From Dictyostelium discoideum (lineage: Eukaryota), in assembly GCA_000004695.1 (NCBI GenBank), contig CM000153.2, positions 448,001-512,000 of the forward strand: a stretch of 64,000 nucleotides of DNA, read 5' to 3'. The notes under the pieces were generated by a model, which saw only the letters and a list, made by a program, of their open reading frames with translations, made no database searches and had not been told where the DNA came from. Positions 38,414-39,135 of the stretch are shown in pieces (the first letter of the stretch is position 1; each line of letters starts with the position of its first letter). Both the position numbers and the translations under genes were made by a program.

Positions 38414-38765
38414 TCTTGAATGTTTATCAAATTGTTTAATTAAGTATTGGGTTAATTATTTGCTACTTTTTTATTATTTTTTTGATTTTATTTTATTATT
38501 ATTTTTTTTTGTTTTTTAAAAATTAATACTTTTTTTATTTTATTTAATTTTTTTTTTTTTGTAAATTTAAAAATTAATGGTTTTATGATAATTTTAGATT
38601 AAAAAAATAATAATTATTATAATTTAATTCTTTTTCTTTGTGATTTAACCACAATTTTTTTTTAAAATCATCATTGGGTTGTTATTTTTTTTAATAATAA
38701 TAATTATTTTTATTTTCAAACCCATTTTTATATTTCACTTTTTTTGAATTTTTTTATTTTTAGAA

Positions 38766-38830
38766 AGGGGTACCTATATTTGGACTCATTGAGGGGTTTG
38801 AAATTGATTTACCCCATCCCACACACACTT
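38766..38830. promoter_or_regulatory. G-box / CA-element-like palindromic element in the shared divergent promoter: GGGGTACC...GAGGGGTTTGAAATTGATTTACCCCATCCCACACACAC
   Basis: GGGGT/ACCCC inverted arms followed by CCCACACACAC, the best non-AT motif in the 722-bp region between the two receptor ATGs (38413 and 39136). It resembles GBF-binding G-box/CAE sites of post-aggregative Dictyostelium promoters. Confidence 0.35.
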
Positions 38831-38967
38831 TTCTTTTTTTAATTTTGATTAAAAAAAATATAACTTTTTTAATTTTTAAAAAAAATTATATTATTATTAT
38901 TTTTTTTTTTTTTTATTTTTTTTATTTTTTTTTTTTTTTATATTTATTCTTATAATTATTATTATTT

Positions 38968-39075
38968 ATTATTATTATTATTATTATTATTATTATTATT
39001 ATTATTATTATTATTATTATTATTATTATTATTATTATTATTATTATTATTATTATTATTATTATTAATATTATT
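38968..39075. repeat. (ATT)n microsatellite, about 35 copies, in the divergent promoter region
   Basis: attattatt... run directly upstream of the + receptor ATG. Confidence 0.9.
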
Positions 39076-39135
39076 ATTACTATTATTTTTCTCAACAATT
39101 TTATAATTCTTTAAATTAGAAATCAATTATTTTAA

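Follow-up and report, generated by a model that had tools for sequence, protein, structure and literature searches.

A conserved multi-box G/C-rich module in the shared spacer of a head-to-head tgr gene pair of Dictyostelium discoideum, and its candidate binding factors

The stretch of DNA analyzed here, which we call the window, comprises 64,000 nucleotides of Dictyostelium discoideum with an overall G+C content of ~22%. It contains two divergent genes of the tgr family (Table 1), and the region 38414-39135 is exactly the gap between their start codons, the minus-strand ATG ending at 38413 and the plus-strand ATG starting at 39136. Both genes are intact in the model, and the first exon of each encodes a hydrophobic signal peptide. 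The plus-strand product is identical to the AX4 protein XP_639151.1 (UniProt Q54R96), is 92% identical to Tiger protein I3 (TgrI3) and matches the Pfam families Ig_TgrO1 and TIG. The minus-strand product combines a signal peptide, a TIG-like ectodomain, a transmembrane segment and a long Asn-rich repeat tail, and shares 29% identity with the plus-strand product over 654 residues; no Pfam family was matched to its 1058-aa second-exon ORF. The cytoplasmic tail of this protein (window 34981-35700, minus strand) carries ~10 near-identical repeats of the type NNNNDVACSSNNNK(I/T)NNNNIS. An automated model of the plus-strand gene in GCA_054883475.1 has 837 aa, starts at 39197 and lacks the signal peptide; the model that is identical to XP_639151.1 is the 855-aa one, which starts at 39136 with exon 1 at 39136-39211.

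Table 1. Genes and promoter features of the tgr pair (positions in the window)
Feature	Position	Strand	Remarks
Intergenic spacer	38414..39135		722 bp, 11.1% G+C; presumed shared promoter of two head-to-head tgr genes
tgr-family gene, 1122 aa	34981..38413	-	exon 1 38413-38356, exon 2 38291-34981
tgrI-like gene, 855 aa	39136..41776	+	exon 1 39136-39211, exon 2 39285-41776
Upstream G-run box TTGGGTTGTTATT	38674..38686	+	common to the promoters of the 78-81% paralog clade and of D. citrinum (AATGGGGTTGTTATTTTTAAC)
Box 0 TTTTCAAACCCATT	38713..38726	- (G-strand on minus)	within the ~120-nt unit tandemly duplicated in L003
Box 1 AGAAAGGGGTA	38762..38772	+	most deeply conserved piece; repeated as AGAAAAGGGGTGA in D. 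firmibasis
A/T core CCTATATTTGG	38773..38783		CC..GG flanks; resembles a MADS/CArG or MEF2 site
Spacer block GGACTCATTG	38782..38791		conserved among copies
Box 2 GAGGGGTTT	38791..38799	+	left dyad arm; variants GGTGGGTTT / TTGTGGGTTT, GGG core invariant
TTGA direct repeat TTGAAATTGA	38798..38807	+	inside the nearly invariant core TTTGAAATTGATTTA
Box 3 and CA run TTTACCCCATCCCACACACAC	38808..38828	-	minus G-strand GTGTGTGTGGGATGGGGTAAA; TTTACCCCA nearly invariant, CA run length varies
Module tail TTTTCTTTTTTTAATTTTGATT	38829..38850		conserved; shared center of the L003 inverted pair

Judged by its predicted products, this is a head-to-head pair of tgr genes, made up of a tgrI-like gene and a partner, and it belongs to the tgrAHIO group. 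Head-to-head tgr pairs are common and are duplicated in clusters (bioRxiv 10.1101/2025.10.22.684067). The tgrAHIO group is reported to have expanded almost as fast as transposons, to be weakly expressed in clonal development and to be of unknown function (PMC12745789). The first-pass annotation of this DNA had taken the region for the shared promoter of two divergent receptor genes of the lagC/tgrC1 type. The gene models, the signal-peptide first exons and the 722-bp gap confirm the shared spacer. The identity with lagC/tgrC1 does not hold in the strict sense: the plus-strand gene is that of XP_639151.1, close to TgrI3, and the tgrB1/tgrC1 (lagC) locus, which lies on chromosome 3 with its two genes 523-524 bp apart (PMC12142906; PMC5288501), was excluded on its chromosome, its spacer length and the TgrI3-like product found here. 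The two loci are alike in that each has a single short spacer between tgr genes in head-to-head order; they differ in position and in spacer length, and the relation of the proteins encoded here to the TgrB/C clades is a distant one. A relative on chromosome 3 (L007) is an unpaired tgr gene, and no new families emerged from a homolog search that used distant Tgr proteins as its profile. In strain ACTFIW (L009, 6762-12661) two Ig_TgrO1-type (tgrI-like) genes lie head-to-head; because this pair joins two tgrI-like genes, and not a tgrI-like gene and a partner with a long Asn tail, pair composition varies within the family.

The spacer has 80 G/C bases among its 722, and 28 of these fall in the 65 nt at 38764-38828. 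In 20,000 shuffles of the spacer the best 65-nt window held 13 G/C on average and 22 at most, so that none of the 20,000 reached 28. The G/C-rich block is thus real and non-random. It is composed of GGGGTACC (38767-38774), GGGGT (38793-38797), ACCCC (38811-38815) and CCCACACACAC (38818-38828), and CCCACACAC occurs twice in the 64 kb, against an expectation of 0.03. A G/C-rich composite element in an A/T-rich region had been described at first pass, and both its sequence and its coordinates were correct. It had also been called the single conspicuous G/C element of the spacer; further small conserved G/C-containing islands lie in the same spacer, TTGGGTTG at 38674-38681 and TTTCAAACCC at 38714-38723. 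Elsewhere in the window, the only other 65-nt G/C islands (25-29 G/C) with flanks below 12% G+C are at 24335-24399 and 31658-31722, and these may be short exons or other elements. Between the block and the plus-strand ATG, a 40-nt T run is followed by a long (ATT)n microsatellite of ~69 units (38885-39087); ATT arrays occupy the same place in the related loci L003 and L006 and explain most of the variation in distance between block and ATG.

Alignment with related promoters revealed that the block is part of a module of ~90-140 bp, larger than the element first described, with opposed G-run boxes, a MADS-like A/T core, a TTGA repeat and the CA run. It lies roughly in the center of the spacer, one ATG being 353 bp away and the other 308 bp. 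With its three or four G-run boxes and the conserved A/T-rich DNA interleaved with them, it is not the single bidirectional site first proposed. Positions 38714-38723, within box 0, and GGGTTTGAAA at 38794-38803 (box 2) make up a perfect inverted repeat of 10 bp. The consensus of the aligned copies reads AGAAAGGGGT, a 12-nt insert in some copies, CCTATTTTTGGACTCATTG(G/A)(T/G)GGGTTTGAAATTGATTTACCCCA(C/T)CC(CAC)ACACAC, and then TTTTCTTTT..TAATTTTGATT, with TTTGAAATTGATTTACCCCA as the nearly invariant core of the alignment; the copies differ by internal indels of 9-14 nt. In the window, the "KpnI-like" palindrome GGGGTACC arose through the deletion of 12 nt that the L003-inverted and L006 copies retain. 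A minus-strand upstream exon or short ORF (ATGAGTCCAAATATAG|GT) was rejected: its ATG is lost in L006 gene 3, and its length varies by 1 nt.

The loci compared were L002 (D. discoideum, AX4-type, tgrI3), L003 and L011 (strain ACTFIR), L009 (strain ACTFIW), L006 (the cryptic species D. cf. discoideum), L004, L008 and L010 (D. citrinum), and L005 (D. firmibasis). Spacer-versus-spacer blastn was swamped by low-complexity A/T matches and was replaced by shared G/C-containing k-mers and a MAFFT profile. The profile search recovered eight copies (one in the window, one in L002, four in L003 and two in L006; E = 1e-11 to 1e-25), all of them upstream of tgrI-like genes. The module is kept at related loci in D. 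discoideum and in its cryptic sister species, so the lack of conservation that would have spoken against the first-pass reading is not observed. When six collinear spacers were aligned with MAFFT, conservation peaked at 38744-38818, with a mean identity of 0.83-0.88 and a conservation of G/C positions of 0.80-0.93, against identities of 0.15-0.6 in most of the remaining spacer and higher values in its A/T-repeat stretches. The comparison between the window and tgrI3 is uninformative, because the alignment of these two spacers extends over most of both; the information comes from L003 and L006, where little else of the spacer survives.

The partner gene lacks its first exon in L002 and is absent from L006, and the module is kept in both. 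In L002 (5435-5520) tgrI3 faces a fragmented divergent partner without the signal-peptide exon 1, hence probably a pseudogene, and the promoter module there is intact. Since the module persists next to a pseudogene (L002) or with no partner at all (L006), it is tied to the tgrI-like gene. In strain ACTFIR (L003) the module has been duplicated as a unit, in tandem in one spacer and inverted in another. The tandem pair, a ~120-nt duplication with a spacing of 223-232 bp, belongs to the tgr pair neighboring the one with the inverted modules, which are arranged tail-to-tail with 42-nt arms; the duplications map to L003 5448-5633 and 11103-11453. Also at L006, hairpin-like G/C-containing inverted repeats (TTCACTGC..GCAGTGAA and GTAGGGAAAAATA..TATTTTTCCCTAC) lie upstream of the module at 5537-5597 and 11585-11650, and may represent a small dispersed repeat.

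Farther out, the architecture is the same with diverged sequence: distant paralogs and D. citrinum have an opposed G-run/C-run pair, mostly with a CA/GT run. In the 78-81% paralog clade (L009, L011) the module is related but rearranged: ATGGGTT(A/G)TTTTTAAACCCACTTTCAC, in most copies AACACCAC(AC)n, then AAAAAGGTTATTTTTAAACTCACAAT. D. citrinum has GAAGGGGTTTGATTGAAATT...ATCACCCCATCATACC, in which the gap between GGGGT and ACCCC is stretched to 28 nt and the CA run is missing, and other promoters of this species have GAAAGGTGTTGTGTGTTT...AAATGGGGTTGTTATTTTTAAC. D. firmibasis has 4-6 tandem AGAAAAGGGGTGATTTT...CTATTTTTA units. Of the motifs counted in the 19 related modules, GGG(G/T)T alone occurs in every one, as a rule in both orientations. 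The weight initially placed on the CA run finds no support, as this is the least conserved part of the module: D. cf. discoideum has it shortened to ACCCCACA(A/C), and D. citrinum L008 and D. firmibasis lack it, while the GGG(G/T)T boxes are constant.

The inverted repeat that had been pointed out as a palindrome exists, but it is short, with 5-bp arms (GGGGT at 38793-38797 and ACCCC at 38811-38815) around a 13-nt spacer; a longer version with 15-nt arms is only 73% complementary. Were it to work structurally, by forming a hairpin or cruciform in the DNA or by encoding a small non-coding RNA, and not as protein sites, one would point to the GGGGT/ACCCC and GGGGTA/TACCCC arms, to the opposed pairs that recur in other clades (GGGTT/AACCC, TTGTGGG/CCCACAA, GGTGT/ACACC), and to the ACCCAT upstream, which resembles the DUSE element of Dictyostelium small-RNA genes. 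Against this, the segment 38760-38832 folded as single-stranded DNA reached -5.2 kcal/mol, compared with -6.0 +/- 1.9 for its shuffles (z = +0.43), and covariation among the eight aligned copies, in two registers, was no better than in column shuffles or slid controls, the GGG/CCC core pairs being invariant. Relatives have anything between 1 and 28 nt separating the opposed runs, copies differ by indels, and the DNA downstream of the CA run is pure A/T. Rfam gave no match at the gathering threshold or at E <= 10, and a tRNA search found none. We therefore rejected a hairpin or cruciform on the folding and covariation results, and a small-RNA gene with a DUSE on the Rfam result, the pure A/T downstream and the indels; a G-quadruplex was rejected because four G-runs never occur on one strand. 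A structural role is very improbable. With neither folding nor covariation signal and a variable gap, the dyad is best read as two opposed protein-binding half-sites.

A GBF site is formed by two closely spaced G/T-rich half-sites, and GBF was the factor to which the CA run had been ascribed. The run does match the published consensus (T/G)G(T/G)G(T/G)G(T/G), or KGKGKGK, attributed to Hjorth et al. 1990 (PMC2257962), and contains two overlapping heptamers at 38819-38827 on the minus strand; the spacer has no others. That strand reads GTGTGTGTGGG and then ATGGGGT, the plus strand carries the GGGGT boxes, and both ATGGGGT and GGGGT are imperfect heptamers. The heptamer is low in information, with 44 occurrences in the window against 31 expected. 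It is nevertheless 30-70 times denser in the modules (2-5 per ~140 nt) than in 33 kb of A/T-rich background (0.48/kb), and every copy from the D. discoideum clade has 2-5 of them; GGGGT, at 2-4 per ~140-nt module, is ~100 times denser than in the same background (0.18/kb). Four of the 19 related modules (D. citrinum L008a, L011b, L011c and D. firmibasis L005b) lack a perfect heptamer.

Several developmental promoters invite comparison. Expression of lagC depends on GBF, and the head-to-head sigN genes have pairs of GBF-like sites in their shared spacers (PMC2257962). GBF is reported to recognize dissimilar G/C-rich elements (Hjorth 1990), and a GBF site plus an AT element is reported to be the minimal functional unit of cotC (Powell-Coffman 1994). 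The present module resembles the G-boxes and CA-rich elements of cprB and cotC/SP60, at the level of consensus on which the comparison rests, in its G/T-rich runs, the possible pairing of half-sites, its A/T-rich promoter, its position a few hundred bp upstream of an ATG and the A/T element alongside; it differs in that its best-conserved boxes, GGGGT/GGGTT, are imperfect heptamers and its CA run is labile. The sigN Group 2 spacers likewise separate inverted duplicated gene pairs and contain conserved G-rich boxes, proposed to regulate both neighbors (PMC2257962), although these genes are of another family, with promoter-reporter data and one member GBF-dependent by microarray. A second, stronger CA element, ACCCTACCCCACCCACACACACA, with six overlapping GBF heptamers, is found elsewhere in the window at 52545-52569, ~110 bp upstream of the ATG of a minus-strand gene (50765..52435) that is weakly Erv1/Alr-like. 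About 80 bp beyond it (52650-52699), an opposed TGTGGGTGT precedes TTGATTGAAAATTGATTTATACCACCA in an arrangement loosely like the core of the tgr module.

Other parts of the module are candidate leads for partner factors or for a reading without GBF: the A/T core, the CCCCAC-like boxes and the TTGA repeat. MADS-box consensus sites are CC(A/T)6GG for SRF and CTA(A/T)4TAG for Mef2 (PMC3640940). An exact SRF-type CC(W)6GG is present in the tgrI3 copy and an exact Mef2-type CTA(W)4TAG in D. citrinum and D. firmibasis, each a C..G-bracketed A/T core at a fixed place in the module. The core of the window is one base off, as CC(W)7GG or CTA(W)4TGG, and the chance frequency of such motifs is high in this genome (0.78/kb in A/T-rich background for a relaxed MEF2 pattern). 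CCCCAC is DimB site S of pspA (PMC3253789); it occurs in 5 of the 7 D. discoideum-clade module entries tabulated and is absent from the 33 kb of A/T-rich background. The C-run boxes of the module (ACCCCA, CCCAC) are of the type bound by the bZIP factor DimB in pspA and ecmA, whereas those sites mediate DIF-dependent prestalk/prespore control and the window copy has ACCCCAT and CCCAC in place of an exact CCCCAC. From the work of Kawata in 1996/97, STATa is said to bind TTGA repeats.

The G/C clustering is genuine and no other part of the promoter is better conserved; the block is therefore probably an ordinary developmental enhancer. We give about an even chance to the proposal that 38762-38850 and the boxes upstream of it (38674-38726) make up an upstream activating module with several sites, GBF being the leading candidate binder; this module would serve the tgrI-like gene and probably its divergent partner as well. 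A zinc-finger factor that binds G/T-rich DNA, with GBF (GbfA) as the best candidate, would occupy the minus-strand half-sites GTGTGTGTGGG and ATGGGGT, and possibly also the opposed plus-strand GGGGT boxes. Its binding would switch transcription on after aggregation, and level or cell type would be set by partner factors bound to the conserved A/T-rich parts. The proposal fits the clustering of G/C far beyond chance, the conservation peak of the spacer, the retention of the module after partner loss (L002, L006), its duplication as a unit in ACTFIR, the architecture kept with diverged sequence in distant paralogs and D. citrinum, the enrichment of KGKGKGK and GGGGT, and the precedents of sigN, cotC and lagC. 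It has to accommodate the weak expression of tgrAHIO genes in clonal development (PMC12745789), a low-information heptamer that several related modules lack, and a best GBF match, the CA run, that is the most labile part of the module. Moreover, the copies are homologous and not independent, and complex sequence may outlast slippage-prone flanks without selection.

The module could be a functional enhancer whose boxes are read by factors other than GBF, which we regard as possible although on the unlikely side: the candidates would be a DimB-type bZIP at the CCCCAC-like boxes, a SrfA/Mef2A-type MADS protein at CC(W)nGG or CTA(W)4TAG, a STAT bound to the direct TTGA repeat, or some further protein that specifically recognizes GGG(G/T)T. 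The last motif is in 19 of 19 modules, against 15 with the GBF heptamer; the frequency of CCCCAC in the D. discoideum clade and its absence from the background, the exact CArG box of tgrI3 and the exact MEF2 sites of the other two species, the position of the TTGA repeat within the nearly invariant TTTGAAATTGATTTA, and the loosely similar arrangement adjoining the other CA element at 52650-52699 all point the same way. The window copy itself, however, has neither CCCCAC nor an exact CArG box, and A/T-rich motifs of this kind are common in the genome, as the relaxed MEF2 background illustrates.

The block might also have no regulatory function and be a relic of recent gene-pair duplications, its apparent conservation arising as complex sequence escapes the replication slippage that scrambles the nearby A/T repeats. 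The strong copies all belong to a single young clade, whose proteins are at least 85% identical, the spacers of the window and tgrI3 align along most of their length, the copies contain internal indels of 9-14 nt, and the family duplicates nearly as often as a transposon, many of its members being pseudogenes or weakly expressed (PMC12745789). Yet the 78-81% clade and D. citrinum keep the architecture although their sequences have diverged, AGAAAGGGGT and CTATTTTT are recognizable out to D. firmibasis and are there multiplied 4-6 times, substitutions in box 2 preserve the GGG core and the G/T richness, and the module was retained after loss of the partner gene and duplicated again as a unit. 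We consider a relic unlikely. Doubtful still, in our estimate, is that ~120 bp of the module form a family-specific, portable enhancer cassette that travels with duplicating tgrI-like genes and diversifies the timing and strength of their expression. Copy number and orientation do vary, from a single module in AX4 to tandem and inverted pairs in ACTFIR and 4-6 G-box repeats in D. firmibasis, and if such a cassette existed, regulatory variation would add to the known coding polymorphism of tgr genes in a fast-evolving cell-surface recognition family.

Overall, the module is a well-supported but ordinary candidate promoter element, of which the strain-specific duplications are the only mildly unusual feature. 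If it is a working GBF-type enhancer, as in the activating-module proposal, tgrH/I-type pairs would be tied to the same post-aggregation switch as tgrC1, and a defined ~90-bp fragment would be at hand for paired, developmentally timed expression. The duplications that distinguish strains would then be a simple cis-regulatory change in copy number within a recognition gene family.
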